Of a stretch of DNA of 64,000 nucleotides, positions 7,029 to 46,528 are shown piece by piece. Under the pieces are notes generated by a model. That model was not told the DNA's origin. It ran no database searches and saw nothing but the letters and a program-made list of their open reading frames with translations. The stretch's first letter is position 1; the number at the start of each line of letters is the position of its first letter. The translations under genes and the position numbers were made by a program. The DNA comes from Escherichia phage KKE7M, in sequence record PQ356295.1; one strand, written 5' to 3'.

Positions 7029-7592
7029 ATGGCTAAACTTTATTTCCGATATAGTCCAATGAACAGTGGTAAAAGCACACATCTGCTACAAACAGCTTGG
7101 AACTATAAAGAAAGAAATATGAAAGTTCTTCTTTTAACTTCAGCTTTAGATACCAGATCTGGTTGTGCTATTGCTTCTAGGATAGGTATTAAAGAGGAAG
7201 CAAAACCAGTTAAAACAAAAGAAGATATGCTGGAAATTTATACACAGCTTAAAGAAAATCCAGTAGATGCAGTATTTGTGGACGAATCACAATTCCTAAC
7301 TAAAGATATGGTTGACATTCTTGGAGATGTGGTAGATAATTACGATATTCCTGTATTCTGCTATGGACTTAAAACAGATTTTGCTACAGAATTGTTTGAA
7401 GGTTCTGAACGGCTATTAGCCATAGCAGATTCAATTACAGAATTGAAAAGCATTTGTAAATGTGGAAGAAAAGCTATTTTCAATGCTAGACTTATCGACT
7501 CTAAAGAACAGATTGTTATTGGGGGAGAAGACATTTACGAAACAATGTGTAGAAAATGTTATAACAGGAGAAATAATGCGTCTAGTATGTGA
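7029..7592 (+). CDS. tdk: thymidine kinase
   Basis: P-loop SPMNSGKST, VFVDESQF, C-terminal zinc ribbon CKCG...CRKC; typical Tdk length. Confidence 0.9.
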   Translation: MAKLYFRYSPMNSGKSTHLLQTAWNYKERNMKVLLLTSALDTRSGCAIASRIGIKEEAKPVKTKEDMLEIYTQLKENPVDAVFVDESQFLTKDMVDILGDVVDNYDIPVFCYGLKTDFATELFEGSERLLAIADSITELKSICKCGRKAIFNARLIDSKEQIVIGGEDIYETMCRKCYNRRNNASSM

Positions 7593-8166
7593 TTGGGATT
7601 TAGTAATAGCTCCTGCGGATATAGAATGGTTAAATTGGTTAAATGCGGTAAGTAGATCTAATATCAAATTTGATAAGACACATAAAACTGTGCATTATGA
7701 TATTACGAAATATTTCCCTGATTTTAAAAAGCAATTTGGTGTAGATCCTTACTCTTTTTGGGATAACCAACATCTATATGATACTATGGGCGTAGTACCT
7801 AATAGTACAGATGTTGTTCATCGTATAATTGCAAATGGAGCTAATATATCTATAGCAAGCCACACTAAGGGTGGACACCTTAGTTCTAAATATAGACACG
7901 TAACACGGTCTTTAGATAAAGTGGATTTTAGTAGAACATCTGGTAATGGTTTTTTCGCAACAAAAGAAAAATACTTATTACCTTGCGACGTAACTATTGA
8001 TGATAGGGCTGAAAATCTTGTCCTATTTCCAGATGAAACGTTGAAAATATATTTCAACACTATTTACGAAGATCCGTACTTGGAAGAGTTAAAGAAACTT
8101 CCTAATGTAATTATCACTGGTTTAGATAATCAGTGGGAAGAAATTGAAAGTATTTTACTACCTTAA
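7576..8166 (+). CDS. HAD-family 5'(3')-deoxyribonucleotidase (NT5C-like)
   Basis: ATG 7576 overlapping tdk stop; N-terminal DWDLV (DxDxV) HAD motif. Confidence 0.5.
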   Translation: MRLVCDWDLVIAPADIEWLNWLNAVSRSNIKFDKTHKTVHYDITKYFPDFKKQFGVDPYSFWDNQHLYDTMGVVPNSTDVVHRIIANGANISIASHTKGGHLSSKYRHVTRSLDKVDFSRTSGNGFFATKEKYLLPCDVTIDDRAENLVLFPDETLKIYFNTIYEDPYLEELKKLPNVIITGLDNQWEEIESILLP

Positions 8167-8175: not shown

Positions 8176-9147
8176 ATGGCAGATTCTATTTCAGCAAAAA
8201 TTATTGCACACTCTCAAACATCTGAAGGTAAGGATATTGTTACCTTTGAACTTGAATATCCTCGAATCATTCACTCTGAATTGATGACGCATCGTTTGTT
8301 TTCTCGTAATGCTGCATCAAGTCGAGCTATCCCTGTTAAAACTCTAATTGAAATGGTACGGCAATCTCCAGCACGTCCTTATCGTTTTGGTGCTAACCAA
8401 CCAGGTATGCAAGATAAAGGCACAGATCACGATGCCCTAATTGATGCAGGTTACACTGCAAAAGAATGGTGGGACTTGGCTGCACTAAGTGCTGCACGTT
8501 TTGCAGAAGAGTTTGCCCTTGCTGGTTATCATAAACAGGTTGCAAACCGATTACTAGAACCATTCCAGCGTATGAAGACTGTAGTAACCACTACAGAGTT
8601 AGAAAACTTCTTGTGGTTGCGCGTAGATGCTGATGCAGATCCTACTATTGAGGCTCTTGCTAAAGAAATTAAAAAACTGTATGAATCTTCTGAACCATAT
8701 CTTCTTTTCCCAGGGGAGTGGCATACACCTTACGTTAATCGTGATCGAGATCCAGAAACTGGTATGATCCGTTATTTCTTGGGTGAAACCTTCTCCAACG
8801 AGAAAATGTTGACAGAAGACGAAGCAAAAGCTATTTCAGCTTCTTGTTGCGCTCAGGTAAGTTATCGTAAGTTGAATGATACTAAAGATAAAGCATTGGA
8901 TATCTATTCTCGTTTGCTGTCTGGACAAAAGGTACATGCATCTCCGTTTGAACACCAGGCAACGCCAATGAAAGAAATGGATTTGTCAGGATTAAAACAA
9001 CAGAAAGGTGGTATTAATATTCCTCCGTTCCCTTCCTCTTGGGAAGAAGGTATTACACATATGGATCGTAAACATCGTTTGTGGAGTGGAAACTTCTGCG
9101 GTTGGATTCAACATCGTCAACTTTTGACTAACCATACAAAATGGTGA
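8176..9147 (+). CDS. thyX: flavin-dependent thymidylate synthase ThyX
   Basis: ELMTHRLFSRNAASSR (ThyX RHR-x7-S-like motif) and HASPFEH. Confidence 0.7.
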   Translation: MADSISAKIIAHSQTSEGKDIVTFELEYPRIIHSELMTHRLFSRNAASSRAIPVKTLIEMVRQSPARPYRFGANQPGMQDKGTDHDALIDAGYTAKEWWDLAALSAARFAEEFALAGYHKQVANRLLEPFQRMKTVVTTTELENFLWLRVDADADPTIEALAKEIKKLYESSEPYLLFPGEWHTPYVNRDRDPETGMIRYFLGETFSNEKMLTEDEAKAISASCCAQVSYRKLNDTKDKALDIYSRLLSGQKVHASPFEHQATPMKEMDLSGLKQQKGGINIPPFPSSWEEGITHMDRKHRLWSGNFCGWIQHRQLLTNHTKW

Positions 9148-9927: not shown

Positions 9928-12189
9928 GTGACTCAGTATCTAAGCAAATCTATCCGTTATGTAACAAAAACAAACGGCAAGAAAGAAGAATTTAATCCAG
10001 AAAAACTTCGTAAATGGTCAGAGTTTGCTGCTGGTAAATTAAATTGGTCTGAAATTGAACTCGAAGCTGTTAAACGTTGTTACGACGGTGTGCCTACTCG
10101 TGATTTACATAAAGCTATGATAGCAGCATGTATTGATAAGAAAGATCAGGCATATAGTGATATGGCAGGTCGGTTACTTCTTGGTATGATTTATAAACAG
10201 GCTCATGGGGGATATCATAATATCCCCTCCCTCCTGGATTTCTACAATATGTCTGTAAGTAAAGGCTATTGGGGAAAAATGGATTATACAGAAGAAGAAA
10301 TTATTGAGATTGGTAAAATTGTCGATCACGATAAAAACCTAACTTATGGTTATTCCGTACTGCGCCAGATGGTTGATAAGTATCTTGTGAAAGATGCGAT
10401 CAATGATGTTGTTTTTGAATCACCACAGTTTTTATTCATTGGTGTAGCAATGAAGGTAATGGAAATTCAACCAAAAGATCGCAGAGTAGAAGACATTAAA
10501 CGTCTATATACCTACGTAAGTGATCTCAAGATTAATTTACCATCGCCTTATTTAACAACTTTGCGTACTAAGATTAAAGGTAGTGCTTCTTGTTGTCTGT
10601 TTAGAGCAGATGATACAGCAGAATCTTTAGCAATTGCTAACTATCTTGCGCATGAATATACATTGAATAATGCAGGTATTGGTGTTAACCTCCAAACCCG
10701 TGCTACAGGACAAGGTGTTAAGAACAACCGTATCGTTCACGGTGGTCTTTTACCATACCTGAAATGGATGGAGACAAGTGTTGGAGCATCAAAACAAGCA
10801 AGTCGTGGTGGAAGTGCAACAGTAACGTTTACAATATTAGAACCTGATTTTGAAGATCTGGTACGTTTGAAAAACCCAACTACTGTTAGTGAAAAACGAG
10901 TAGATAAACTTGATTACTCTATCGTAGTAAACAATGCTTTCCTGCGTCGTGCAGCAAAAGGTAAAGATTGGATGCTAGTCAGTTATGACGAAGCACCAGA
11001 ACTCTATGAGGCGCTTTATAAAAGCGAGGAAGAGTTTGAAGAAGTATATGAAAAAGTTAGTCGCAAACGAATTAAGAAGAAGTTTGTAAAAGCACGAGAT
11101 CTTCTGGCAGAAATTATTACACAAAGAGCAGAGACAGGACGTATTTATATGTTCTTTGCGGATAATGCTAATAAGCATACTCCGTTTAAGGATGTTATTT
11201 ACCAGTCAAACTTGTGCCAAGAAATTTTCTTACCTACGAAAGCATTTCACAATATGACTGATCTTTTCACAGGTGAGAATACAGAAGATCAAGAATTGGC
11301 ATTATGCTTCCTGTCTTCTATTGTAGCTGGTCGTGTTACACCAGAAGAATATGAAGATGTTGCATATTATACCGTTCTGACTATTGATAATGTTATTGAA
11401 ACAATGCAGTATCCGTTTAAACATAACGAAATCACTGCTAAAGCACGTAGGTCTATCGGTGTAGGTATTACAAACCTTGCACATTATCTGGCAAGTAATT
11501 TTGTTACTTATTCAGATCCTTACGGCAAAAAACTAATTCATGAATTAGCAGAAAGACATTATTATTGGTTAGCAAGAGCTTCTCTTCGTTTGGCAAAAGA
11601 GAAAGGTAATGCAGAATGGATGCATAAAACCAAATGGCCTGGAGGATGGTTGCCTATTGACACCTACGCTAAAGCTGTAGACGATATTGGCAATTTTAAA
11701 CTTAAAATGGATTGGGAAGGTTTACGACAAGATATCATTGCACAGGGCGGTATCCGAAATAGTGTATTAGCAGCTATTGCTCCAAATGAGTCCAGTAGTC
11801 TTGTAAGTAATACGACTAACTCTGTGTATCCTGTACGTGATACTATAGTTTATAAACAAAGCCAAAAGGGTAATGTTCTGTTTATTGTGCCAGACTACGA
11901 TAAACTAAAAGATATTTACCAATCGGCTTGGGATACACCAGATAAAGATATGGCTGAAGCATATGGACTGTTGACTAAATTCTTAGATCAAGGTGCATCA
12001 TGTGATAAGTGGATTGACTATTCTAAGATGGAAGGTGGTCGTTTATCCATTAAATCAGAAATGCAATATATTCTTCAGTTTGCAAAACTTGGTGGTAAAT
12101 CTTTGTACTATCTAAATAGCAGAACAAAATCGGCAACCTCACTCGCTCAAGAGGATGAAGAATCCGGTTGTGAGGCTTGTAAGATGTAA
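9928..12189 (+). CDS. nrdA: ribonucleotide reductase class Ia large subunit
   Basis: 753 aa; GTG start after AGGAGAGG; NLCQEI active-site motif, C-terminal CEACKM tail. Confidence 0.9.
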   Translation: MTQYLSKSIRYVTKTNGKKEEFNPEKLRKWSEFAAGKLNWSEIELEAVKRCYDGVPTRDLHKAMIAACIDKKDQAYSDMAGRLLLGMIYKQAHGGYHNIPSLLDFYNMSVSKGYWGKMDYTEEEIIEIGKIVDHDKNLTYGYSVLRQMVDKYLVKDAINDVVFESPQFLFIGVAMKVMEIQPKDRRVEDIKRLYTYVSDLKINLPSPYLTTLRTKIKGSASCCLFRADDTAESLAIANYLAHEYTLNNAGIGVNLQTRATGQGVKNNRIVHGGLLPYLKWMETSVGASKQASRGGSATVTFTILEPDFEDLVRLKNPTTVSEKRVDKLDYSIVVNNAFLRRAAKGKDWMLVSYDEAPELYEALYKSEEEFEEVYEKVSRKRIKKKFVKARDLLAEIITQRAETGRIYMFFADNANKHTPFKDVIYQSNLCQEIFLPTKAFHNMTDLFTGENTEDQELALCFLSSIVAGRVTPEEYEDVAYYTVLTIDNVIETMQYPFKHNEITAKARRSIGVGITNLAHYLASNFVTYSDPYGKKLIHELAERHYYWLARASLRLAKEKGNAEWMHKTKWPGGWLPIDTYAKAVDDIGNFKLKMDWEGLRQDIIAQGGIRNSVLAAIAPNESSSLVSNTTNSVYPVRDTIVYKQSQKGNVLFIVPDYDKLKDIYQSAWDTPDKDMAEAYGLLTKFLDQGASCDKWIDYSKMEGGRLSIKSEMQYILQFAKLGGKSLYYLNSRTKSATSLAQEDEESGCEACKM

Positions 12190-12229: not shown

Positions 12230-12565
12230 ATGCCTACATTAGTTGTATTACCTGGGGCAACACCACAAAGACGCTGGGGAAATTATACACTGGTAGATAG
12301 TAAAGATTTTACATTCGATTGGTGTTGTCATTATATTGCAGGTTTTCAATTTTCCAGTGTTGAAATATGGGCTTCCAATGATCCCATAGCTACCTGGTAT
12401 GCTTTAACCAGAGCAAGGTATGAGGGAGAGGTTACTATATTACTCACAAAGAGTGTATGGGACGCATTAGAGAAGGCTTACCTAGAGGATGGTATGGAGA
12501 GAGAACACATTGATACAATAAAAGCAATGTGTGATATTGTGGAGGATTTAAATGGCAGCAATTAA
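12230..12565 (+). CDS. hypothetical protein between nrdA and nrdB (111 aa)
   Basis: ATG 12230 after AGGAGG. Confidence 0.45.
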   Translation: MPTLVVLPGATPQRRWGNYTLVDSKDFTFDWCCHYIAGFQFSSVEIWASNDPIATWYALTRARYEGEVTILLTKSVWDALEKAYLEDGMEREHIDTIKAMCDIVEDLNGSN

Positions 12566-13637
12566 CTTATACAACGACACTTACAAAGAAGGTTTCTACC
12601 CTGTATTTTTGGGAGAACAGTTAGGTATTTTTGATTCTATTAATGTAACATACCCAGAAATGCATCGTCTGTACAAACTACAAAAACAGCAAGATTGGGA
12701 TGAAAACGAAGTAAACTTAGATCAGACACGAAAAGATTTCGTAGCTTGTTCTAAAAGCAACTATGATGTTATGATCAAAAACCTATCCTTCCAATGGGAA
12801 AATGATTCACTTGCTAAATCAATCATCACTTTGTTTGCACCATTTTTAAGCAACAATGAAGCATGTGCAATGATGATGAAGCAATCAGAAATGGAAGTTT
12901 TACACGCTTTGACATATTCTGAAATTATTCGTCAGTGTATCCCTAATCCAAATGAAGTTATCGATCAGATTATGGAGAACGAAAGAATCTTCCAGAGGAT
13001 GGGTATAGTTGAAGAGATAATGAGTGATCTGGCAGAGGCAGGACATAAATATGCTCTAGGTCTGATTGAGAAGGATGATAACCTTCGTCTACTGATTCTG
13101 AAAGGAATGATTGCACTTATCGGTCTGGAAGGCATTCAATTCATATCATCTTTTGCTGCAACATTTGCCTTAGCAGAGCAGCAACTGTTTGTAGGTGCAG
13201 CTAAACTCATTCAAAAAATTATGTTGGATGAACTATTGCACGTTAAAATGGATTATGCTATTATTGATGCACTGCTGAAAGATCCTGTCTGGAGAAAAGT
13301 ATACGAAGATAATATCGACGTTCTGACAGAAATTCTTGACACGGTAGTTGGACAAGAGGAAGATTGGTGTGACTATCTGTTTAGTGAAGGAAGGATTATC
13401 GTTGGTGGTAACGCAGAGTTGTTCAAACTTTGGGTTTACTTCAATGCTGCGCCTATCTATCGCAGACTGAAAATGAAACACAAATTCCGTGCACCGAAGA
13501 AAAGTCCACTACCTTGGATGGATGTTTGGTTAAATCCAGACCAAATTCAAGCAGCAGCACAAGAGATCCAAATTACAGCTTACAAACTGAATTCAGCAAA
13601 TAAAGATGTAAGTGATGACGAGGAGTTAGACTTCTAA
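12552..13637 (+). CDS. nrdB: ribonucleotide reductase small subunit
   Basis: 361 aa; EMEVLHALTYSE and LEGIQFISSFA diiron-site motifs. Confidence 0.85.
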   Translation: MAAINLYNDTYKEGFYPVFLGEQLGIFDSINVTYPEMHRLYKLQKQQDWDENEVNLDQTRKDFVACSKSNYDVMIKNLSFQWENDSLAKSIITLFAPFLSNNEACAMMMKQSEMEVLHALTYSEIIRQCIPNPNEVIDQIMENERIFQRMGIVEEIMSDLAEAGHKYALGLIEKDDNLRLLILKGMIALIGLEGIQFISSFAATFALAEQQLFVGAAKLIQKIMLDELLHVKMDYAIIDALLKDPVWRKVYEDNIDVLTEILDTVVGQEEDWCDYLFSEGRIIVGGNAELFKLWVYFNAAPIYRRLKMKHKFRAPKKSPLPWMDVWLNPDQIQAAAQEIQITAYKLNSANKDVSDDEELDF

Positions 13638-13855
13638 TGAAACTACTTTGTGTTGGATTAATTTCTGACTTCAAAGACGTTTTCGAAAAGGGAGCCTCTT
13701 ATGAGGCTTCCGAATTACAGAATGGTTTCTGTGATGTTTACGGCAAACGTTTAAAAAAGAATGGTGATCATTGGCTAGGAGTTATGTCTTGCGGTCATAT
13801 TATAGTTAATGGTGTAGCCAAGTTTGAAATTATCAAAGGAGAAAAAGATGATTGA
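13637..13855 (+). CDS. hypothetical protein (72 aa)
   Basis: ORF overlapping nrdB stop. Confidence 0.4.
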   Translation: MKLLCVGLISDFKDVFEKGASYEASELQNGFCDVYGKRLKKNGDHWLGVMSCGHIIVNGVAKFEIIKGEKDD

Positions 13856-14030
13856 TTTTGTTGATGTAGATATTAATTCTGACTTAACAGAAGATGAAGG
13901 TGGTGCTTTTGTGTGTTCAGATGGAGAGAAATGTTTTACTCTGATGGTAGAAACTTATGATGGTATCACAGAAATTCTGTTAACAGAGAATGAGTTAAAA
14001 CAGATGTTAGAAAAGATTGAGGAGCTTTAA
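13848..14030 (+). CDS. hypothetical acidic protein (60 aa)
   Basis: ATG 13848 after AAAGGAG. Confidence 0.4.
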   Translation: MIDFVDVDINSDLTEDEGGAFVCSDGEKCFTLMVETYDGITEILLTENELKQMLEKIEEL

Positions 14031-14032
14031 TA

Positions 14033-14179
14033 ATGGACGATGTAAGTATTTGTCCTATCTGCGGCGGCACTGGGAATTTTATTGTTAGTATGGAACAATT
14101 TATTCCTTGTTGGAATTGTAACGGCTTAGGTTTCGTTCATACAGAAGAAAAAGAAGAGGAGGAAGATAGTGGGAGTTGA
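14033..14179 (+). CDS. small zinc-ribbon protein (48 aa)
   Basis: CPICGG...CWNCNG double CxxC; below ORF-track cutoff. Confidence 0.4.
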   Translation: MDDVSICPICGGTGNFIVSMEQFIPCWNCNGLGFVHTEEKEEEEDSGS

Positions 14180-14495
14180 TATTGCATGGCGTATGTTACA
14201 GGGTGCACCTTTTAATAAATGGGAAGAGGCTGTAGGAGAAGATCCTAAAATTGAAGAAGAATTTGGTGGAGATTTGAACTGGTTCTTACAAGAAGGTCTT
14301 GATTTAAGTCGTATCTCTCCTTTCTATGATGCTGATGAATCTTATTGCATATATGGCATTTATTTAGAAGGTGGCGAAGGAAGTATAGCTGTAGATCTTG
14401 AGCAACTAAATAAGAATGCAAAAGAAGCCTATGCACAACTTCTTGAAAAATATAACATTGAAACGGAAACTATTATTTCTCAACACGTTTGGTAA
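14169..14495 (+). CDS. hypothetical protein (108 aa)
   Basis: GTG start after GAGGAGG. Confidence 0.45.
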   Translation: MGVDIAWRMLQGAPFNKWEEAVGEDPKIEEEFGGDLNWFLQEGLDLSRISPFYDADESYCIYGIYLEGGEGSIAVDLEQLNKNAKEAYAQLLEKYNIETETIISQHVW

Positions 14496-14508
14496 GGAGG
14501 ATAGTAGA

Positions 14509-14706
14509 ATGATGCTAGATCAACTGATCAATGCTCCTCGCGTAACAGTAAGTCCAAAAACATTTGCATCACTTTTAGAAGATGCTAGAGAGGTTTATAA
14601 CTTTACTGAAGAAGAGCTTCCTGTTCCTGTTAAAAAAGGTTCCAGATGGTTATTTTATGAAGGTATTGTTTTTACTGAAGGGAATAATTGGAAGGAGACT
14701 AAATGA
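14509..14706 (+). CDS. hypothetical protein (65 aa)
   Basis: ATG 14509 after AAGGAGG. Confidence 0.4.
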   Translation: MMLDQLINAPRVTVSPKTFASLLEDAREVYNFTEEELPVPVKKGSRWLFYEGIVFTEGNNWKETK

Positions 14707-15692
14707 AATACTTAGTAACAGGTGGTTTAGGCTTTATTGGAAGTGCGGTAGTTCGTTTCCTGGCTAAAAACACTAAGAATGATATTTACGTTATAGATAA
14801 ATGGGGTTACGCTTCAGACCCTAGAAATTTATCAGAAACACCTAATGTAAAGTTTTGTCGTGTTGACTTGACAAATGCTCAGTTAACTGCTAAGATTGTG
14901 GCAGATGTTAATCCAGATTATATAATGCATCTTGCAGCAGAAAGTCACGTAGATAATTCAATAGCATCACCGAGTGTTTTTATAAATTCAAATATTGTTG
15001 GAACATTTAATCTTCTAGAAGCTGTTCGTTTAATGGGAGATAAATCAAATCTTAAAATGTTTCATCATATTTCAACAGATGAAGTGTATGGTGATATGGA
15101 AGAAGGGGATTATCCGTTTACAGAACAGAATCCTTATAAGCCAAGTAGTCCATATGCTGCATCTAAGGCAGCAAGCGATCATTTGGTAAGAGCGTGGCAT
15201 CGTACTTATGGTATTCCAACAGTTATAACAAATTGTTCAAATAATTTTGGAGCGTATCATCATCCAGAAAAACTAATACCTAAAACGATAACAAATATCT
15301 TGATGCATAAACCAATCCCTGTTTATGGCAATGGTCTTCAAGTAAGAGATTGGTTATACGTTGACGATCACGCAGAAGCATTACACCTAGTAGTAACTAA
15401 AGGCAAATCTGGAGAAACATATAATATTGGGAGCAGAAACCCTAGAACTAATATTGATGTAATCTATATGATTTGTGATTATATGGATGCGGTGTATCCA
15501 TCTGAAACAGATGCTTGTAGCCTCATTGAGATGGTTACAGATAGACCTGGACATGATTTAAGATACGAAGTGAATCCTTATAAGATTGAAAAGGAATTAG
15601 GGTGGAAAGCTAAAGGCACATTTGAAGAAAAACTTTATTCAACCATTGATTGGTATGTAGATAACAAAGAGTGGTGGGAAAATAAAGTTTAA
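14703..15692 (+). CDS. rmlB: dTDP-glucose 4,6-dehydratase
   Basis: TGGLGFIGS Rossmann motif, YAASKAASD catalytic Yxxx[10 protein letters not shown]. Confidence 0.9.
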
Positions 15693-15700
15693 GGAGGAGT

Positions 15701-16570
15701 ATGAAAGGTATTATCTTAGCAGGTGGTAGTGGAACAAGACTTTACCCAGTTACTAAAGGGGTTAGTAAACAACTATTACCAATTTATGATAAGCCTATGA
15801 TTTATTATCCACTCTCTGTCCTAATGCTTTCTGGAATTAGGGAAATACTAATAATTACAACACCAGAAGATCAAATTAATTTTGTAAATCTTTTAGGTGA
15901 TGGTTCTTCTTTTGGTATTTCCCTACAGTATGCAATACAGGATAGCCCAAGAGGTTTAGCAGAAGCGTTTATTATTGGTGAGAACTTTATTGGTGAAGAT
16001 TCTGTAGCACTTGTGCTAGGTGATAATTTATTCTTTGGTCAGAGTTTTGGTAGCATTTTAGATTCTGCTAAAGAACATATTGAAAAGAATGGTGGAGCTA
16101 ATATTTTTGGGTATCACGTAAATGATCCTGAAAGATTTGGTGTTGTTGAGTTTGATTCTGAAGGTACAGTGGTGAGTATTGAAGAAAAACCAAAAGCACC
16201 AAAAAGCAACTATGCAGTTACAGGCTTGTACTTTTACGATAATTCTGTTATACAGAAAGCTAAAAGCGTTAAACCTTCTGCTAGAGGGGAGTTAGAGATT
16301 ACAGATATAAATGAGATGTACTGGAAAGAAAAGACTTTACGTGTCTGTAAACTAGGAAGAGGTTTCACTTGGTTGGATACAGGAACACATGAAAGTCTTA
16401 TGGAAGCATCTCAATTTGTTCATGCAATAGAGAAGCAACAAGGTATGAAGGTTGCATGCCTAGAAGAGATTGCTTTTAAAAATGAATGGATTACTTTAGA
16501 TTCTGTAAAAAGTTCTGGAGAGGTTTTAAGTAAAACAGACTACGGTAAGTATTTACTTAAATTAAAATAA
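15701..16570 (+). CDS. rmlA: glucose-1-phosphate thymidylyltransferase
   Basis: [16 protein letters not shown] and [18 protein letters not shown] signature. Confidence 0.9.
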
Positions 16571-16581
16571 AGGGGAATTAA

Positions 16582-17136
16582 ATGATTCAAGCAACAAAAA
16601 TCGAAGACTTGTTGATCATTCAACCTGACGTTTATGGAGATGAACGTGGCTTTTTCTTAGAAAGTTTTAATCAGGCTTTATATGATCAATACATAGGTAA
16701 ACAAAACTTTGTCCAAGATAACCATTCACGTTCTATCAGAGGAGTTCTACGTGGGCTTCATTTTCAAAAGAAAAACCCACAAGGGAAGTTAGTACGTTGT
16801 GTTCGTGGTGAAGTTTATGATGTTGCTGTAGATATTAGGGTTGGTAGTCCAACATTTGGAGAATGGGTAGGTGTTCTCTTATCTGAAAAGAATAAAACAC
16901 AATTTTGGATTCCTCCTGGTTTCGCTCATGGCTTTGTTGTGATTAGCGATATTGCTGATTTTGAATACAAATGTACAGAATATTACGATCCGACTTCAGA
17001 GTGTAGTCTTGCGTGGAATGATCCAGATATCAATATAGATTGGGGTTTTGATTTAATCTTTAATGATATTAATTTTAAACCTATCTTGTCACAAAAAGAT
17101 CAGGAAGCCAAAACACTAAAGGAGATCATATTTTGA
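16582..17136 (+). CDS. rmlC: dTDP-4-dehydrorhamnose 3,5-epimerase
   Basis: 184 aa; RGLHFQ and FVQDNHS cupin motifs. Confidence 0.85.
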   Translation: MIQATKIEDLLIIQPDVYGDERGFFLESFNQALYDQYIGKQNFVQDNHSRSIRGVLRGLHFQKKNPQGKLVRCVRGEVYDVAVDIRVGSPTFGEWVGVLLSEKNKTQFWIPPGFAHGFVVISDIADFEYKCTEYYDPTSECSLAWNDPDINIDWGFDLIFNDINFKPILSQKDQEAKTLKEIIF

Positions 17137-17963
17137 CAAAATTTTTAGTCTTTGGTTCAAAAGGTCAATTAGGACAGTCTTTGGCAAAAGTTGCGCCAGA
17201 AGATGTTATTTTGATTGAAGCAAGTGATGTAGACATTACCAACTTTAAAGATGTTATGGATAGTCTTGTACAACATATGCCTGATGTTGTTGTGAATTGT
17301 GCGGCTTACACGGCAGTAGATAAAGCGGAAGAAGATGTTAACACCTGTATAAATGTTAATGCATACGGTGCAACAAACATTGCCAAAGCATGTAATGATT
17401 TACTGATACAGTTTGTACATATTTCAACAGATTATGTTTTTGATGGGAATGTTGCTGGCACAGAAGATAGTAAAACAAACCCCTTGAACATCTACGGTTA
17501 CAGTAAACAATTAGGTGAAACTTTAGTACAAACAGTTTGTCCTACAGCACTTATTATCAGAACAGCTTCTGTTTATAGTGAATTTGGACATAACTTTTTG
17601 AAAACTATGTTGGAACGCTACAACGGTGGTCAAAAAGAATTTAATGTAGTGTGTGATCATTTATCATGTCCTACTTATGCACCTGATCTTGCAGAAACAA
17701 TTTTTAAACTTGTAAAAGATGGTGTAAATAGTAAAATTGTACACTATGCAGGTGCAGATTATATTTCTTGGTATGATTTTGCACGAAAGATATTTCTTGT
17801 TATAGATTTATCTGTTACAGTTAATCCTGTATCTGCTTCAACCTATAATTCAAAAGCAGTCAGACCAGCAACATCTTATTTAAAAACAGATCCTACTTTA
17901 AATCCGCGAAGTGTTGATAGCGGTATTGTAAGAACTTTAACTATACTTTTAAACAAGGAGTGA
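17133..17963 (+). CDS. rmlD: dTDP-4-dehydrorhamnose reductase
   Basis: TTG start overlapping rmlC stop; FGSKGQLGQ Rossmann motif; operon context. Confidence 0.85.
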   Translation: MTKFLVFGSKGQLGQSLAKVAPEDVILIEASDVDITNFKDVMDSLVQHMPDVVVNCAAYTAVDKAEEDVNTCINVNAYGATNIAKACNDLLIQFVHISTDYVFDGNVAGTEDSKTNPLNIYGYSKQLGETLVQTVCPTALIIRTASVYSEFGHNFLKTMLERYNGGQKEFNVVCDHLSCPTYAPDLAETIFKLVKDGVNSKIVHYAGADYISWYDFARKIFLVIDLSVTVNPVSASTYNSKAVRPATSYLKTDPTLNPRSVDSGIVRTLTILLNKE

Positions 17964-17965
17964 AA

Positions 17966-18226
17966 ATGAATTTTATTATCTACGGTAAACCAAATTGTCC
18001 TTTCTGCACTAACGCTAAGATTCTACTGGAACAGCGTGAACAGGATTTTAAATACCTTACCTTAGATGAAGACTATTCTTTAGATCAGATTCAGAATCTG
18101 GTTTTAGAGAAAACAGGTGTTCTACCACGCACATTTCCTCAGATTTTTGTGGAAGATGGTGAACAGCTAACCCACGTAGGAGGTTTTTCTGAACTACGTG
18201 AATTCATGGCTCAGATTGCGGAGTAA
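17966..18226 (+). CDS. glutaredoxin/thioredoxin-fold protein (NrdC/NrdH-like)
   Basis: CPFC active site in IYGKPNCPFCTNAK; ~87 aa. Confidence 0.8.
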   Translation: MNFIIYGKPNCPFCTNAKILLEQREQDFKYLTLDEDYSLDQIQNLVLEKTGVLPRTFPQIFVEDGEQLTHVGGFSELREFMAQIAE

Positions 18227-20899: not shown

Positions 20900-21328
20900 A
20901 TGTTACCAGTACCTGTAATATTTGTAGAAAAAGCCTACTACTCTTTAGAACAAAACTGTAAAAGAGCTAAAAATTTTATTGAAAGTTTAGCAGAACAACG
21001 TTACACTGTATCTAAAAAGGGATGGTTTAGAAATTCACAATATTTAGTCAACCCTTTCGGAGAAGTTCGTGTGTTGTACGGCAACACAGAAAACATCTTA
21101 GAAAGAATGTTAGAACTAGATAGGATCTCCTCCTGTGATTATCAACTGTTGAAATTTTACGATGTGTCAGAAAACATTAAAAACTTTCTTGACGATTTGT
21201 CTAAACGAAAAACAGAAGAAGATACAATACCAGTATCTATGGAAGAATTAACGTTCTTAAGAGATATTATGGTTTTTGAAGAAAACCCTGAAATTACAAA
21301 AGAGGAGATTTTAAGTAGTGGCAAATAA
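20900..21328 (+). CDS. hypothetical protein (142 aa)
   Basis: ORF with AGGAGG RBS. Confidence 0.5.
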   Translation: MLPVPVIFVEKAYYSLEQNCKRAKNFIESLAEQRYTVSKKGWFRNSQYLVNPFGEVRVLYGNTENILERMLELDRISSCDYQLLKFYDVSENIKNFLDDLSKRKTEEDTIPVSMEELTFLRDIMVFEENPEITKEEILSSGK

Positions 21329-21827
21329 GTATGATCGTCCACCAACTGATTACTATCCTACTCCACAAAAATGTATAAATGCATTATTTAGTGTAATAGA
21401 TTTTAATAACCTTAAAGAAGAAGGTTTTATTTTTGCAGAACCGTGTAAAGGCGCTGCTGCTGCAATTTATCAACATTTTCCAGAAGGATCAGAATATTGT
21501 GAGTTAGAAGAAGGGAAGGATTATTTTAACCACGAATGGCATACTAAGCCGGATATTATAATCACAAATCCACCATTCAGACTTGCACTTGAGTTCTTGC
21601 AAAAGAGCTTAAAAGAAGCAGACGTTTGCATATACTTGTTGCGTCTTGGGTTCCTAGAGTCTATTAAACGAAGGGAATTCCATAAACAGAATCCACCAAC
21701 AAATTTGATTGTTCTCTCTGAACGACCATCTTTTGTTGCAGGTGGCACTGACAAGACAGCATATGCTTGGTACGTCTACGACCCAAAAAACAGGCTGGGT
21801 TTAACTCAACCTTTCTATTTTGTTTAA
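21318..21827 (+). CDS. minimal SAM-dependent methyltransferase-like protein (169 aa)
   Basis: YYPTP...FAEPCKGAAAA...DIIITNPPF resembles gamma-class amino-MTase motifs X, I, IV; no target-recognition domain. Confidence 0.4.
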   Translation: MANKYDRPPTDYYPTPQKCINALFSVIDFNNLKEEGFIFAEPCKGAAAAIYQHFPEGSEYCELEEGKDYFNHEWHTKPDIIITNPPFRLALEFLQKSLKEADVCIYLLRLGFLESIKRREFHKQNPPTNLIVLSERPSFVAGGTDKTAYAWYVYDPKNRLGLTQPFYFV

Positions 21828-26594: not shown

Positions 26595-26621
26595 TACAGA
26601 AAAACAGAAGAGGAGATTAGC

Positions 26622-27035
26622 ATGTACTATAGTGACTATTTTGTAAACCCAACAAAAGAACAACTTCAATCGGCAGTGGATAAGATGCAGATTGTAGTTA
26701 AAGAATGTGAGAAAATAAGAAAACAACTACAAGAAGAAACTGTTGTTGTTAATAAATGGTTTGGTCTTAGAAAGAAGGTTGTTAGTAAACACAATATCAT
26801 CCTTGAAAAAGCAAAAACGACAGGGACTAGTTACGCCTTACAAGGCTTGTTGCTAAATTACATTGATATAGAACAACATTCTCTTCTGCACTGTTGGCTT
26901 CACAGTCCTAGTATTGAGGATCTCTTGTTCTGGTTGTCGTGTGAATCTGTACTTTTAAACGAAAATGAGGCTTACCGTTTAAACTTCTGCCTTAAGGCAG
27001 AGTTACCAGCTAGTGTTAAGGAGAAGAAGCAATAA
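26622..27035 (+). CDS. hypothetical protein (137 aa)
   Basis: ORF with GAGGAG RBS. Confidence 0.5.
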   Translation: MYYSDYFVNPTKEQLQSAVDKMQIVVKECEKIRKQLQEETVVVNKWFGLRKKVVSKHNIILEKAKTTGTSYALQGLLLNYIDIEQHSLLHCWLHSPSIEDLLFWLSCESVLLNENEAYRLNFCLKAELPASVKEKKQ

Positions 27036-28024
27036 TGAAAGTTTTAAGTCTTTTTGATGGTATGTCAGGAGGAATGCTTGCACTAAAAAGCGCAGGTATT
27101 GAAGTAGATAAGTATTATGCCTCAGAATTGGACAAATTTGCCATAGCTGAAAGCCAAGCCAATTTTCCAGATATTATTCAATTAGGTGATGTTACAAAAT
27201 GGAGAGAATGGGATATCCCGTGGGGAGAAATTGATCTTTTGTTAGGTGGTAGCCCGTGCCAAGGCTTCTCTTCTTCTGGTAAGGGTTTGAACTTTCAAGA
27301 TCCGCGATCTAAACTGTTCTTTGAATATGTTGAAATTCTTGAACATATTAAAAAGTTTAACCCTAATGTTAAGTTCATGCTTGAAAACGTTAAGATGAAG
27401 GTGGAGTGGGAAAACGTGATCACAAGTTACTTAGGTGTTGATCCCGTATTCATTAACTCCGCAGATTTCACGGCACAGAATAGGCAACGTTTATACTGGT
27501 GCAATTGGGAAATAAAACCTTGGGATATTACCAATGAAGTGTTGCAAGATATCATTGAAGATGATAGTATCGTAGACAGAGATAAGGCTTATTGCATAGA
27601 TGCAAATTATGCCAAAGGTGGTAATATAGAACAGTATTTTGAAAAGAGTCGCAGACAACTGGTTTTTTATCCGGCAGCAATATATGGGCGTAGAATTAAT
27701 GAAAATGGCAAACGTAGTACATCTAAAACTGATCGTTTGGTACATTGTTTGGAAGTTCAGGACAGTGAAAAAACTCGTTGCCTCACGACTGTGCCTAAAG
27801 ACGTACTACTAGCTTACATTCCACCTGGAAGATATCTAGATGCCTTTGAAAAATTGAGTGAAGGCGTACATTATAGAAAGTTAACGGTTAAAGAGTGTTG
27901 CCGCTTACAAGGTGTTCCAGATGATTACTTTAAAGTGAGTAGTAACACACAAGCATATAAGATGTTAGGCAATGGTTGGACTATACCTGTCATTGCGCAT
28001 ATTCTTAAATCTATGGAGGAATAA
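27035..28024 (+). CDS. DNA cytosine-5 methyltransferase
   Basis: LSLFDGMSGG (motif I), GGSPCQGFS (PCQ motif IV), ENV (motif VI), C-terminal LGNGWTIPVI. Confidence 0.85.
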   Translation: MKVLSLFDGMSGGMLALKSAGIEVDKYYASELDKFAIAESQANFPDIIQLGDVTKWREWDIPWGEIDLLLGGSPCQGFSSSGKGLNFQDPRSKLFFEYVEILEHIKKFNPNVKFMLENVKMKVEWENVITSYLGVDPVFINSADFTAQNRQRLYWCNWEIKPWDITNEVLQDIIEDDSIVDRDKAYCIDANYAKGGNIEQYFEKSRRQLVFYPAAIYGRRINENGKRSTSKTDRLVHCLEVQDSEKTRCLTTVPKDVLLAYIPPGRYLDAFEKLSEGVHYRKLTVKECCRLQGVPDDYFKVSSNTQAYKMLGNGWTIPVIAHILKSMEE

Positions 28025-28147
28025 TGGAAACATTGTGGAAAGGCTGGAAGACTGCTCTGATAGCTTTTATAATTCCATTAACTTTTCTTGGTTGGTGTTT
28101 TTGGGAATTTATCTTTTGGGTAATTTCCCATATACATTGGGGGTAAT

Positions 28148-28759
28148 ATGACTCAAAAAGTTGCATATCAAGTAGATCGTGAAGATGGTGAAGGTAGCGT
28201 TGTAGTTTTTGATACACATGGTCTTGCAGCAAGACGCAGAGGCGCTTGTCTATTGGACATTGGTGGTGAAGATGAATACTGCACTGTACGTAGAGTAAAA
28301 GAATTTGATCAATACGCTGAAAAAGGTTTTGTACCTGCAAAAGCACTATTAGAAGCTGGATGGTGGATACCTAGTGCACATGATTATGATATTTTGGAAT
28401 CAGATACAGACGAGTTTAACAGTGAAAATTTTGTTTTCTCTCTGGATGAAAAATGCGTTTGGAAAGATTGGGATGAAATGGAACGCCATGCTTATTTTAT
28501 AAACGAAGCATTAGATCGTAAAACTTGGTTTGAAAATACAGTTAAAGCAGCGTATCCTCAATTTACTTTTACAGAGTTTTGGGGTGGCCCACACCATATT
28601 ACTCATGTGGCATACTTCGAGTTCCCAGGCTCACGCTATAAAGGTACTGTCTACTGGGATTGGGACGAGGACAAAGAACCTTCTGCTCAAGACTTCCGTT
28701 GCTATGTTTGTCAAGGTGATCAAGAAGCCCTTGACAAGTACCTTAAAAGTCTGGTATAA
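28148..28759 (+). CDS. hypothetical protein (203 aa)
   Basis: ORF. Confidence 0.5.
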   Translation: MTQKVAYQVDREDGEGSVVVFDTHGLAARRRGACLLDIGGEDEYCTVRRVKEFDQYAEKGFVPAKALLEAGWWIPSAHDYDILESDTDEFNSENFVFSLDEKCVWKDWDEMERHAYFINEALDRKTWFENTVKAAYPQFTFTEFWGGPHHITHVAYFEFPGSRYKGTVYWDWDEDKEPSAQDFRCYVCQGDQEALDKYLKSLV

Positions 28760-28775
28760 TCCGTAAAACTTAACC

Positions 28776-28800
28776 AAAGCCCCAAGCAGGGGCTTTATTT
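28776..28800 (+). terminator. rho-independent terminator
   Basis: AAAGCCCC-AAGCA-GGGGCTTTATTT. Confidence 0.6.
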
Positions 28801-28813
28801 GTCTGGAGGATAT

Positions 28814-29347
28814 ATGGGTTTTGATGACATGTTATTATATGAGGAGGCTTGTGTGAAAGAAGCTATGGCTTTACCAGTTTTATCTATTGATATTACAACA
28901 GTAGACACTTTTTCAGATTGTGAAACGTGTGGATCGTATTCATCTATTGTACATGAAGTCAGTGGGGATTTAGGCACTTACGAAGATGGAGATTATGCAA
29001 GTTGTTTAGGTGATAATCGAGATGGTGAAGTGGCGAATGTTGCAAACTGGATCGCTTCTAAGTTAAAAGAAAGAAATCGTCCGTTCCCTAATCTTCTTAC
29101 ACCAGAATCTATGCTTAAAGCTGAACAAGAGATGGATGACTATGGTTATAAAGTAGATTATGACTATAATGATCCTACTTATAAAAAATTGAGTGACAAG
29201 TATTGGGAACTAGCTAATGCTTATGATAAATACTACTCTACAGAAAACATTGTTAAATTATTTTTAGATTTTGGAGTAGAAATTAATTGGGATTTCGAAG
29301 AGGAAGAGCGTTACGATGCATCTTATTGGGAGGACGAGGGTGAATGA
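28814..29347 (+). CDS. hypothetical acidic protein (177 aa)
   Basis: ATG 28814 after GGAGGA. Confidence 0.5.
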   Translation: MGFDDMLLYEEACVKEAMALPVLSIDITTVDTFSDCETCGSYSSIVHEVSGDLGTYEDGDYASCLGDNRDGEVANVANWIASKLKERNRPFPNLLTPESMLKAEQEMDDYGYKVDYDYNDPTYKKLSDKYWELANAYDKYYSTENIVKLFLDFGVEINWDFEEEERYDASYWEDEGE

Positions 29348-30084
29348 TAGAACGAAAACCCTTACCAGATAGAGATTACTTGTTATCAAGGTTTAGTGTG
29401 GAGAATGGTCGTCTTGTTTGGAAACCTAAACCTTCTACAACAAAAGAGAACAAAAGGTGGAATAGCAGATACGCAGGGAAGATTGCAGGGACTATTGATA
29501 AAGTTGGTTACTCTCATGTCAAAATAGATGGTATTGTATATTTGGAGCACAGAATTTGTTTTAAAATGTATCATAATTACTGTCCAGATGTTATAGACCA
29601 TGACGACGGCAATAAACTTAATAATGCGGAAAGTAATTTATTGGATAGTAACTATTTATTAAATAATAACAATAGACACGTAGATGGGTTAGAAGGTATT
29701 TATGAAAAGGATGGTGTTTTTCTTTGGGTTATAAACTACAACCAAGAAACTTTCTCTGTTTCAGGTTTCAAAACTAAAGAGGAAGCTACTGTAGCTAGAG
29801 CTTTAGCAAAACAAGAAATTTTGAAAGGATCTTATATCAAAAAAGAAAAGAAGCGTATAGATAACACTTCAGGATTAAGTTGTGTGTTTGTGGCAACAAG
29901 AGAGAGAACATTCTTTTTCAAGTTTGTGTTTGACAAGACCGCTTATTGCAAATATGGTTTCAACGATCCAGAGAGATGTGCTATAGCTCTGGAGAAGTTA
30001 AGGTTGAAGGTGATGAAAGAAAAATATAAACCTGCAAATAAAAGCATTTGCGAAAAATATAAGGAGGAGATTTATGCCGCGTAG
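29344..30084 (+). CDS. HNH endonuclease-like protein (HNH_3-type, 246 aa)
   Basis: GYSHVKIDG...LEHRI...VIDHDDGNKLNNAESNL pattern. Confidence 0.5.
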   Translation: MIERKPLPDRDYLLSRFSVENGRLVWKPKPSTTKENKRWNSRYAGKIAGTIDKVGYSHVKIDGIVYLEHRICFKMYHNYCPDVIDHDDGNKLNNAESNLLDSNYLLNNNNRHVDGLEGIYEKDGVFLWVINYNQETFSVSGFKTKEEATVARALAKQEILKGSYIKKEKKRIDNTSGLSCVFVATRERTFFFKFVFDKTAYCKYGFNDPERCAIALEKLRLKVMKEKYKPANKSICEKYKEEIYAA

Positions 30085-30889
30085 AGTCATATTCATAACT
30101 GGCGCAGGACTATCTGTGGATAGCGGTATCCCAGCTTTTAGAACAGATACTTCTTCAGGGGAGGCGTTATGGTCTTCTTATGATCTTTCTGAGGTCTGTG
30201 ACATTTTCAACTTCCGTGATGGTTATCAGCAAGAACAAGGTGTTCTTGATGCTATGGGTGGTTTAGATGCGGAAGGATATAACCTCTACCGTAAAACTCA
30301 CGACTTTTACAATAAACGTCGCGTGGAATTAGCGAAAGTTGACCCGAATCCAGCACATCTTCAGATTGGAGAATGGTTCAAAAAATATGGCCCAGAACGA
30401 ATTCTTAACATTACTACTAACGTGGATGACCTCCTTGAACGAGCAGGAGTAAATAGGGAAGAAGTGCTACATGTGCACGGTTTTCTTCCTGAAATTACTT
30501 TTCAAAGAAAAGCTGGACAACCTACAATTGTAAAAGATGTTGGTTATCAAGCCATAGATGTAGATGACTACCATTATGTAAAACCTAATGTAATTTTCTT
30601 TGGAGAAGCTGCTCCACTTTACACAGATATGTATCATATTCTTGATACACTAACGGCTCAAGATATGGTTGTAGTAGTAGGATGTTCAAACCAAGTTATC
30701 AATTTTAATTGGGAATTATTCCCTGCACTTAATATGGGTACAAAAATGATCGTTGTTAACCCAGGAATTAATTACGAAGAAACTCTTCTTTACGAAGATA
30801 GAGGAGTCTTTGTTTATCGAGAAAAGGCCGCAGATGCTTTTAGCAATCCTGCTTTCATAAAAATGATAGAAGATCATTTGACTAAATAA
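30074..30889 (+). CDS. SIR2-family (sirtuin-like) protein lacking zinc-binding cysteines
   Basis: GAGLSVDSGIPAFR, NPAH, TTNVDDLLERAG, HVHG, VIFFGE, VVVGCS, VVNPGIN match sirtuin motifs; no CxxC...CxxC module. Confidence 0.75.
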   Translation: MPRRVIFITGAGLSVDSGIPAFRTDTSSGEALWSSYDLSEVCDIFNFRDGYQQEQGVLDAMGGLDAEGYNLYRKTHDFYNKRRVELAKVDPNPAHLQIGEWFKKYGPERILNITTNVDDLLERAGVNREEVLHVHGFLPEITFQRKAGQPTIVKDVGYQAIDVDDYHYVKPNVIFFGEAAPLYTDMYHILDTLTAQDMVVVVGCSNQVINFNWELFPALNMGTKMIVVNPGINYEETLLYEDRGVFVYREKAADAFSNPAFIKMIEDHLTK

Positions 30890-43186: not shown

Positions 43187-43546
43187 ATCAGACTCCTTTA
43201 TAAATTTACGTTTCATGCTACACATCATACAGCGTCTTTTCATCTATTACAAGAACAGCAACCTAGAAACATCATTAATAGAGGAATTAGTATAGGATTT
43301 CCCTATCAATTATTCTATATATACCTAATATTTTTAACACACCCCTTTGTACATAATATAGACAAATAAATATCTATGCCACAAAAATTTTCCGGTATAC
43401 CCGATTTATTTCGACACACCCCCTTTTCATAAGCGTAAAGCCAATAATATCAATAACTTGCCGCAAAATACTGCTCGCTTGCGAGAGGTGCTTAACGCGA
43501 TTTTTAGCGCCCCCGATTTCTGCCGACCGTCCCCCTCAAATATCAA

Positions 43547-43561
43547 TGAGAATTATTATCA
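43547..43561. promoter_or_regulatory. Fur-box-like 7-1-7 palindrome TGAGAATTATTATCA
   Basis: 14/15 match to TGATAAT-N-ATTATCA. Confidence 0.45.
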
Positions 43562-43741
43562 TTTGCATTATCATTCAATGACTTATAAGACTTTTGATTA
43601 TTTTCTGAGCAAGAAAGGCACTACTCACAACAAAACAGATAAATTATAAGTAAATCAATGACTTGGCAAGTCTAAACATCTATATACACCTTGCCAAATG
43701 AAATGATCCTGCGTGAAATAGTGCTACCCGTGGAAGATAGC

Positions 43742-43756
43742 TGATAATGATTATCA
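43742..43756. promoter_or_regulatory. Fur-box-like palindrome TGATAATGATTATCA (perfect 7-1-7 match), with TATACT -10-like hexamer 14 bp downstream
   Basis: Exact match to Fur 7-1-7 consensus TGATAAT-N-ATTATCA. Confidence 0.55.
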
Positions 43757-44279
43757 TTTGCATATTTTCTATACTATAAAACTACCTAAAAATCAAGATA
43801 ATTCTGATTTATTGCGCTTTTAAGAGAATAGGCTCAACAAATAGGCTATAACTATGCTCAACAAATGATAGGTTATATGGGGCAATAGTATGAAAAACCA
43901 TCTATTCAGATATAAATAATTTTGCGCAATAATGGTGATATTTTTCTTGACAAGAAAGATTTCTTTGTGTTCACATAGCGTCCCCTGGAAGGTGGCGCAT
44001 TATGATCATCAATGTCATTGTTCACGATGTTTATTATTGAATAGCTTATTATATGTAGCTTATATTATAGCCAATGTTCCAAACATTAGCTAATAATAAC
44101 GCACCGCAACAATGTAAGGGATACAATATACCATGTATATTGTTGCGCTTGCAATTGTTGCAAGCTACATAAGCACAAATAATAACTATCGGTGATGGTT
44201 ATTATGTGGGGTGTGTAGTTGCGTTATTATTAGCCGCCTATGTGTCCGGCATAGGCTGCTAATGATACGCTTGCTAATT

Positions 44280-46505: not shown

Positions 46506-46528
46506 AGTATTTACCTTTTTGATTACCT

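Follow-up and report, generated by a model that had tools for sequence, protein, structure and literature searches.

An intact dTDP-L-rhamnose cassette within the ribonucleotide reductase operon of phi92-like phages and its possible use by phage glycosyltransferases

Genes for the synthesis of deoxythymidine diphosphate (dTDP)-L-rhamnose have been annotated since 2012 in phage phi92, in phAPEC8 and in other members of the subfamily Stephanstirmvirinae. The 'peculiar' location of this operon and the idea that it serves DNA glycosylation are already in print (Olsen et al., 2020; PMC7552041). Phi92-like phages have also been described as 'exceptionally susceptible' to restriction-modification (RM) 'despite a putative dTDP glycosylation machinery' (Maffei et al., 2021; PMC8594841), a susceptibility that was later restated (Vitt et al., 2024; PMC10844046). 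Our literature search found no functional study of this operon. Here we analyze the rmlB-rmlA-rmlC-rmlD genes of Escherichia phage KKE7M in a stretch of 64,000 nucleotides (nt) of sequence record PQ356295.1, hereafter the window; all coordinates are window positions. The operon is 99.5% identical at the nucleotide level to that of Escherichia phage Antha, of the phi92-like genus Justusliebigvirus (Stephanstirmvirinae). It is 95-99.5% identical across 55 Justusliebigvirus records including Antha, most of them annotated with the four enzyme names, and RmlC homologues with 60-80% protein identity occur in 77 further records from Phapecoctavirus, 'Wecvirus' and several Klebsiella phages; about 130 related genomes from several genera have the operon. 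KKE7M is another isolate of a known genus, with no substantive difference from the operon already described, and as a sequence observation the operon adds no new kind of system. What is new here is functional evidence drawn from selection, reassignment of a neighboring glutaredoxin gene to the reductase, and the history of the cassette inside its host operon. We also describe a link to a remote glycosyltransferase (GT) cluster in the same phage groups, assign folds to two families of that cluster, argue explicitly against bulk DNA glycosylation, and give a rationale for host independence with a number attached to it.

All four steps of the dTDP-L-rhamnose pathway are encoded in KKE7M by intact, co-oriented genes. 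Families were assigned with NCBIfam equivalog models and their curated cut-offs, with Pfam as a second test, and the NCBIfam scores of RmlB, RmlA, RmlC and RmlD are far beyond chance. The dTDP-D-glucose 4,6-dehydratase RmlB (14703-15692, plus strand, 329 amino acids) scores 441.7 bits against TIGR01181 (cut-off 365.1; E = 1e-132), and the glucose-1-phosphate thymidylyltransferase RmlA (15701-16570, plus strand, 289 amino acids) scores 473.6 bits against TIGR01207 (cut-off 360.7; E = 2e-142). The dTDP-4-dehydrorhamnose 3,5-epimerase RmlC (16582-17136, plus strand, 184 amino acids) reaches 259.8 bits against TIGR01221 (cut-off 155.8; E = 1e-77). For the dTDP-4-dehydrorhamnose reductase RmlD (17133-17963, plus strand, 276 amino acids from a TTG start), the margin over TIGR01214 is modest (254.9 bits against a cut-off of 224.05; E = 8e-76). 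Pfam assignments of the four proteins are consistent with these results, and RmlA falls under the cut-off of a narrower enterobacterial model, NF012024 (443.7 against 588).

Catalytic motifs are conserved in each enzyme. In an alignment to Salmonella enterica RmlB (1g1a, 393 bits), the phage protein retains GGxGFIG, the S-T-D-E-V-Y-G segment with its catalytic Thr, Asp and Glu, and YxxxK. RmlA aligns with S. enterica RmlA (1iim, 420 bits) over GGSGTRL, LGDN, EEKP and WLDTGT, and its active-site Asp and Lys positions are kept. RmlC, which is 57% identical to RfbC of Escherichia coli K-12, aligns with S. enterica RmlC (1dzr, 219 bits) at RGLHFQ (His), GKLVRC (Lys) and F-E-Y-K (Tyr); its C-terminal K-D aligns with that of K-12 RfbC. 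RmlD is the most divergent of the four, with 38-67% identity among four phage copies compared; its alignment to Bacillus anthracis RmlD (3sc6, 157 bits) includes GSKGQLG (GxxGxxG), ISTDYVF and YGYSK (YxxxK). The identities that the first-pass annotation of this DNA gave to the four genes at 14703-17963 are borne out, with scores above the equivalog cut-offs and motifs aligned.

The four rml genes are under purifying selection and are in all probability working genes, because their catalytic motifs are intact, substitutions are synonymous or the ratio of nonsynonymous to synonymous rates (omega) is low, and reading frames have stayed open despite saturated synonymous divergence (dS). Between KKE7M and JohannJBalmer (99% identical), nonsynonymous divergence (dN) is 0 in rmlB, rmlC, rmlD and the glutaredoxin gene grx, in which all changes are synonymous. 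When ESCO5 (Phapecoctavirus) is compared with PsgM04F, rmlB and rmlA have an omega of 0.056, and the values of rmlC, rmlD and grx are 0.13-0.15. Four divergent phage copies share mostly 38-72% amino acid identity, with dS saturated between genera and every open reading frame (ORF) open. The first-pass annotation had named inactive pseudo-copies as the finding that would count against a complete pathway; motifs are intact and selection is purifying, so the genes do not appear to be pseudo-copies. One could still envision a captured host fragment, decaying and carried as a passenger without current function, since many hosts, K-12 among them, already have rfbBDAC and the phage genes look redundant there. 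We consider this very improbable: ORFs and motifs are intact, omega, where measurable, is 0.06-0.15, four of the five genes have a dN of 0 within the genus, the operon is spread over about 130 genomes in several genera, no close cellular donor is found and composition is phage-like.

The rml cassette is likely to be old in this phage lineage and vertically inherited. The order nrdA-nrdB-(small ORFs)-rmlB-rmlA-rmlC-rmlD-grx-(small ORF)-endolysin-phoH is common to JohannJBalmer, ESCO5, PsgM04F and Klebsiella phage 05F01, the last deeply divergent, with an RmlC 52% identical to that of the window. Recent capture from a host was ruled out because the best cellular RmlA is only 70% identical and composition resembles the phage. 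Specifically, in a search of one genome per species across 185,579 species, no cellular RmlA exceeded 70% identity; the best reached 69-70%, and below them lies a flat continuum of 60-68% across phyla. GC content of the cassette is 34.6%, and both GC and GC at third codon positions resemble the phage background. Between Justusliebigvirus and Phapecoctavirus, NrdB is 84-85% identical and the Rml proteins are 55-72% identical. ESCO5 and PsgM04F share RmlB at 95% and RmlA at 98% identity, with RmlC at 66%, RmlD at 67% and glutaredoxin at 74%. This mosaic of rmlC and rmlD alleles indicates recombination inside the operon, with a putative breakpoint between rmlA and rmlC, and implies that at least three divergent rmlC/rmlD allele classes may circulate in the subfamily.

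The five ORFs of the rml-grx stretch all lie on the plus strand, at the positions first assigned to them from the ORF list. They were initially described as including four overlapping genes; the four are contiguous, but only rmlC and rmlD overlap, by 4 nt, while gaps of 8 nt (rmlB/rmlA) and 11 nt (rmlA/rmlC) separate the others. A Shine-Dalgarno-like sequence stands upstream of each of the five genes, and a scan for promoters and terminators around the operon gave the same counts as shuffled sequence. The fifth gene (17966-18226, plus strand) encodes a CPFC glutaredoxin of 86 amino acids from ATG 17966, or 88 from 17960; the former is the most likely start, as in the JohannJBalmer annotation. 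It matches PF00462 at 45.4 bits (gathering score 22.9), has a thioredoxin fold and carries C-P-F-C at residues 12-15 of the 86-residue form. It falls below every NCBIfam equivalog cut-off (best GRX_bact, 53 against 90), and its matches in the Protein Data Bank (PDB) include T4 glutaredoxin (1aaz) and E. coli Grx1 (1ego), both of which are reductants of class Ia ribonucleotide reductase.

This glutaredoxin most likely serves as the electron donor of the phage NrdAB rather than as a member of the sugar pathway. In Vequintavirus FFH2, of the sister subfamily, the order is thyX...nrdA-nrdB-glutaredoxin; grx starts 4 nt past nrdB and rml genes are absent there. We base the assignment on this adjacency without rml and on the PDB relatives. 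The proposal that a CPFC glutaredoxin follows rmlD stands, and its inclusion in the sugar pathway does not. By the same comparison, the rml cassette and a few small ORFs appear to sit within an nrdAB-grx operon. The class Ia reductase genes nrdA (9928-12189) and nrdB (12552-13637), both on the plus strand, are placed by the ORF list and the JohannJBalmer annotation. Between nrdB and rmlB, at 13637-14706 on the plus strand, the ORF list gives five small ORFs of about 48-108 amino acids with no function assigned; these travel with the rml cassette in Stephanstirmvirinae and do not occur between nrdB and grx in FFH2. Only the 108-residue ORF (14169-14495) was long enough for our Pfam scan, and it had no match.

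A nucleotide-metabolism context had been proposed for the operon, and nrdA, nrdB, tdk (7029-7592; PF00265, 185 bits) and a gene for a ThyX-like protein (8176-9147; PF02511, 30 bits) are indeed where they were placed. The ThyX-type protein is unusually long (323 amino acids) and divergent: its PF02511 match covers residues 22-170, and the motif T-H-R replaces the canonical R-H-R. Just upstream, an ORF at 7462-8166 has a weak match to NT5C-type deoxynucleotidases. Placement of the cassette inside the nrdAB-grx operon, near tdk and thyX, raises the question of whether the pathway acts on nucleotide pools only. Because dTDP-L-rhamnose inhibits RmlA, it could feed back on host RmlA/RffH, or the pathway could buffer deoxythymidine triphosphate (dTTP); either would spare thymidine nucleotides. 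However, the pathway itself uses up dTTP, and one inhibitor protein would do the job at lower cost. That purifying selection has kept all four enzymes through deep divergence, and that a GT cluster occurs in the same phage groups, points instead to a product that is used. We therefore regard pool management as improbable.

Which transferases might use the sugar? We scanned with Pfam all 63 window ORFs of at least 105 amino acids, concatenated with linkers, and the larger unannotated proteins of JohannJBalmer; matches to Serglycin and proline-rich families proved to be artifacts of the GS and poly-P linkers and were discarded. No GT was found among the 63 window ORFs. The first-pass annotation, which recognized no GT in the window, was right to that extent, but a shortage across the genome does not follow, as near-identical genomes carry four candidates about 71 kb away. 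In JohannJBalmer, four adjacent genes in the other genome arm, beside primase/helicase and DNA polymerase, are labeled 'disaccharide synthase' (two) and 'glycosyltransferase' (two). All four proteins match PHROG glycosyltransferase families (E = 1e-79 to 1e-149). Pfam matches are weak: GT1/GT4-like for two paralogues and a sub-threshold TET-associated-GT match for a 228-residue protein. All four lack transmembrane segments.

Structural models are available for two of these families. The 228-residue protein belongs to a GT-A family that is nearly confined to phages, with 17 clusters among 5.8 billion proteins, and whose F-D-D-D motif is invariant. The AlphaFold model of a member with 78% identity (pLDDT 88.6) has a generic GT-A fold, with STIV A197, WrtF, chondroitin and heparosan synthases, TarP, Listeria RmlT and giant-virus GTs as neighbors. 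For the 314-residue protein, a model of a 99% identical copy (pLDDT 94.6) shows a GT4-type GT-B fold whose neighbors are BshA, MshA, GlgM, PglA, SdgB, GtfC and TarM. A PDB sequence search with three of the GT candidates gave no match, and the fold searches, which returned only generic GT-A and GT4 neighbors, named no acceptor.

The GT cluster and the rml operon share a distribution. Both are found in 55 Justusliebigvirus records. Among Escherichia-phage records, RmlC, GT-A and GT-B number 105, 106 and 106, and among Klebsiella-phage records 8, 9 and 10. All three occur in Klebsiella phage 05F01, the deepest branch, which has a three-gene version of the GT cluster at the same position. The large rV5-like group left no sign in these summary counts. 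In a more distant phage lineage, a GT-B gene lies beside primase/helicase with a sugar epimerase/dehydratase gene 1.5 kb upstream. The closest cellular relative of the GT-B protein, in Burkholderia dolosa, is encoded next to an invasin-like gene and outside any polysaccharide or rml cluster. Joint occurrence of rml and GT genes is consistent with a functional link between them.

Some of the records involved carry doubtful host names. Four entries for 'Campylobacter phage' A150, A145, C3 and A110a (MG065639, MG065645, MG065656 and MG065689, respectively) have a 98.6% identical operon and the same GT cluster, and the host given for them is probably an error. Close relatives labeled 'Acinetobacter', 'Serratia' and 'Pseudomonas' may have questionable host names too.

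We tentatively favor a model, to which we would give slightly less than an even chance, in which the operon provides a host-independent supply of dTDP-L-rhamnose for the phage's own GTs, acting on an acceptor other than DNA. RmlA, followed by RmlB, RmlC and RmlD, would convert glucose-1-phosphate and dTTP to dTDP-L-rhamnose early in infection, and the phage would have its own donor whatever the serotype of the host. Users of the donor would be the soluble phage GTs: a GT-A enzyme carrying a DXD motif, GT-B enzymes of a GT4-like kind (one or two) and a fourth candidate. Together these could build up a short glycan that contains rhamnose on an acceptor other than DNA. Host genomes provide a rationale: rfbC is detectable by blastn in only 2199 of 5426 complete E. 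coli genomes (a lower bound), and a phage that needs dTDP-rhamnose therefore could not rely on its host. The K-12 allele is matched at 99% identity or more by 483 of the 2199 rfbC genes and at only 60-80% by 1712, a spread that shows how extremely diverse host rml alleles are.

A protein, with a virion protein the most plausible, is our leading guess for the acceptor, though on its own a doubtful one; we rank it first because the GT4 neighbors include the protein O-glycosyltransferases SdgB and GtfC and because the GT-A relatives are mycobacteriophage GTs. A cell-envelope glycan comes second and is unlikely, and some other molecule, known or not, is no likelier. Capsid and tail proteins show weak enrichment of Ser/Thr-rich tails, at the C-termini of the sheath and portal proteins, which we do not count as evidence.

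Several considerations weigh against this donor-supply model. In Antha, 71 kb separate the rml operon from the GT cluster. The cluster lies outside the window, and its presence in KKE7M is expected from near-identical genomes. Joint distribution of the two gene sets amounts to a single evolutionary event, as they occupy essentially one clade. We infer both the use of dTDP-rhamnose by the GTs and the identity of the acceptor. GT4-type enzymes usually take sugars linked to uridine or guanosine diphosphate (UDP or GDP), and we know of no glycosylated coliphage virion. A direct homology to gp108-110 of mycobacteriophage Che8, which we take to be GTs tied to proven virion glycosylation, was considered and dropped: by BLASTP the GT-A protein has no significant similarity to gp109-110, nor were the other two of the four GT-versus-Che8 pairs significant, which makes the virion analogy an indirect one. 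Finally, related reductases of the RmlD fold make the C4 epimer, and the C4 stereospecificity of the phage RmlD, which decides between L-rhamnose and 6-deoxy-L-talose, is not readable from its sequence.

DNA is the acceptor proposed in print, and sugar modification of phage DNA was the first use suggested for KKE7M. Under this hypothesis (PMC7552041), phage GTs would move rhamnose onto a modified base, much as glucose is placed on hydroxymethylcytosine in T-even phages, and the DNA would evade host defenses. The rml genes lie in a nucleotide-metabolism module and the GT cluster is beside primase/helicase and DNA polymerase, even in distant lineages. The GT-A protein also has a weak match to the TET-associated glycosyltransferase family PF20691 (23.3 bits, cut-off 27.5) and one to the PHROG beta-glucosyl-HMC-alpha-glucosyltransferase (E = 5e-5). 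However, Bas60-62 of the BASEL collection, in which the operon is 98-99% identical, are the phages reported as 'exceptionally susceptible' to type I, II and III RM (PMC8594841, PMC10844046). Our Pfam scan of window ORFs and larger JohannJBalmer proteins found no hydroxymethylase (ThyA-like, dCMP/dUMP) and no TET/JBP enzyme, with several of the scanned proteins lacking any Pfam match. The thymidylate synthase is of ThyX type, and the GT folds are generic GT-A and GT4 folds rather than those of the T4 alpha- and beta-glucosyltransferases. Our literature search found no data on glycosylated nucleosides in virion DNA of these phages. Bulk DNA glycosylation is unlikely because the phages are restriction-sensitive, no enzyme for an acceptor base was found in the proteins scanned and the GT folds show no specific resemblance to the T4 enzymes. 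Susceptible relatives and the lack of a hydroxymethylase or TET/JBP match speak against the use first suggested, and overall we consider DNA modification improbable; we keep it at that level because of the weak match to TET-associated glycosyltransferases, the position in the replication module and the chance that modification is sparse.

Alternatively, rhamnose could be destined for the host envelope. Host or phage GTs might add it to nascent lipopolysaccharide (LPS) core, O-antigen, enterobacterial common antigen (ECA) or another glycan; in a variant of this idea, dTDP-4-keto-6-deoxyglucose would be drained from ECA synthesis. The ECA precursor dTDP-Fuc4NAc shares RmlA/RmlB-type steps with the pathway. 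Either change could mask receptors against superinfection or reduce the loss of progeny on debris. These phages bind surface glycans, namely NGR glycan, O-antigen, capsule and, as a terminal receptor, LPS core glucose (PMC8594841, PMC11984140, PMC11990801), E. coli K-12 is able to place rhamnose on the LPS inner core (cited in PMC12548472), and GT-A and GT4-type GT-B folds serve in the assembly of LPS, teichoic acid and polysaccharides. Set against this, the life style of these phages is strictly lytic and a single cycle sees little new envelope synthesis, the GTs have no features of membrane association, the Pfam scans found no flippase, polymerase or Gtr-type gene, and the literature search gave no report of changed surface glycans in infected cells. 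Envelope remodeling is thus unlikely in our estimate, and it and pool effects alone are weaker alternatives to a donor supply for the phage's own GTs on a non-DNA acceptor.

The donor-supply model predicts that hosts without rml are where the phage rml genes count for most. It is possible, though we would lean against it, that the rml genes and GT cluster together build a rhamnose glycan on an acceptor that has not been described for phages of Gram-negative bacteria, either virion proteins, as a self-sufficient glycan coat on a coliphage, or sparse, sequence-specific sites in DNA whose modification gives no protection from the restriction systems examined so far. Because they infect a very wide range of hosts, phi92- and phAPEC8-like phages are often put forward for therapy and biocontrol. 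If the particle carried a glycan of the phage's own making, its immune recognition, stability and pharmacokinetics would be affected, an argument already made for glycosylated mycobacteriophages; a modified envelope or DNA would bear on superinfection and on evasion of host defenses. A direct test can draw on four enzymes, three to four transferases and genetically tractable BASEL isolates that grow on E. coli K-12.

Other features of the window lie apart from the operon. On the minus strand, the small-ORF region at 46500-55100 contains at least eight copies of an intergenic cassette (families D1-D5 and D9), each with a promoter-like element, TTGACA-N17-TAnnnT, followed by the hairpin GGCGGGAAATGGTTTCCCGCC. 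The copies resemble an array of early promoters with stem-loops ahead of small ORFs, and the region as a whole is GC-richer (about 0.41). Six copies of the palindromic, Fur-box-like AATGAGAATGATTATCATTT flank the region (D7 and D8; 43532-43763, 44667-44703 and 55977-56098), and three repeats of about 75 nt (D6) occupy 56114-56334. An accessory island at 26600-30100, absent from the same site in JohannJBalmer, encodes a C5-cytosine DNA methyltransferase (27035-28024; PF00145, 144 bits) and a protein with a weak HNH endonuclease match (29344-30084); a separate N6-adenine methyltransferase is annotated at 21318-21827. Domain matches identify a SIR2-family protein (30074-30889) and a T4 gp30.8-like protein (44946-45404). 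On the minus strand at 56533-59276 are a NADAR-domain protein (56533-57084), a CapR and T5orf172 protein (57085-58074) and an AAA ATPase (58149-59276). JohannJBalmer (MZ501084) also has, at 50400-59100, a Ter-like cluster (TerF-type vWA, TelA, TerC) with a ComF-like phosphoribosyltransferase, a HAD hydrolase and a macrodomain protein, and, at 137250-139950, a nicotinamide phosphoribosyltransferase and a phosphoribosyl pyrophosphate synthetase.

The bacterial counterpart of the phage operon is RmlABCD, or rfbBDAC, of the S. enterica and E. coli O-antigen clusters. The same four enzyme families are used, catalytic motifs are kept in the phage, and the product is presumably the same. Phage Rml proteins are 57-70% identical to the enterobacterial versions. 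However, the phage order is B-A-C-D and that of K-12 is B-D-A-C; the phage genes lie in a ribonucleotide reductase operon and the bacterial genes in a polysaccharide cluster. Unlike the bacterial clusters, the phage operon has no adjacent rhamnosyltransferase, flippase or polymerase gene.

Glucosylation of T-even DNA is an analogy drawn in the literature, and the likeness is in phage GTs encoded alongside DNA-metabolism genes. T-even phages use host UDP-glucose and their own dCMP hydroxymethylase, and their DNA is restriction-resistant. In contrast, the group of KKE7M would make its own dTDP-sugar, no hydroxymethylase was found in it and its relatives are restriction-sensitive.

Mycobacteriophages of cluster F1 offer a second comparison, as Che8 and Rita have several adjacent soluble GTs outside the structural module. 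Freeman and colleagues reportedly described virion glycosylation in these two phages in 2023. To our knowledge, mycobacteriophages do not encode a nucleotide-sugar pathway. In a phage collection, the only relatives of the GT-A protein outside its own family are about 51 mycobacteriophage GTs with 25-30% identity. Capsids of cluster F1 phages are reported to be glycosylated (PMC11256854), whereas the coliphage side is known from genes alone, and none of the four GT pairs with Che8 gp108-110 was significant.

RmlC homologues with 34-57% identity also occur in Synechococcus phages RN05-S and RB11-B, in Sphingomonas phage PAU and in gut metagenomic phages. There they often adjoin other sugar-nucleotide enzymes, in unrelated genomes and contexts. 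Giant viruses offer a further parallel. Mimivirus synthesizes UDP-L-rhamnose with a eukaryote-type bifunctional enzyme and has glycosylated fibrils, and Mimivirus GT R655 and megavirus GTs are among the fold neighbors of the GT-A model. Giant viruses differ in that their rhamnose is linked to UDP rather than dTDP, and in their unrelated lineage and different host. What they share with the KKE7M group is a virus-encoded pathway to a rhamnose donor, independent of the host and accompanied by the virus's own GTs, which in giant viruses decorate the particle.

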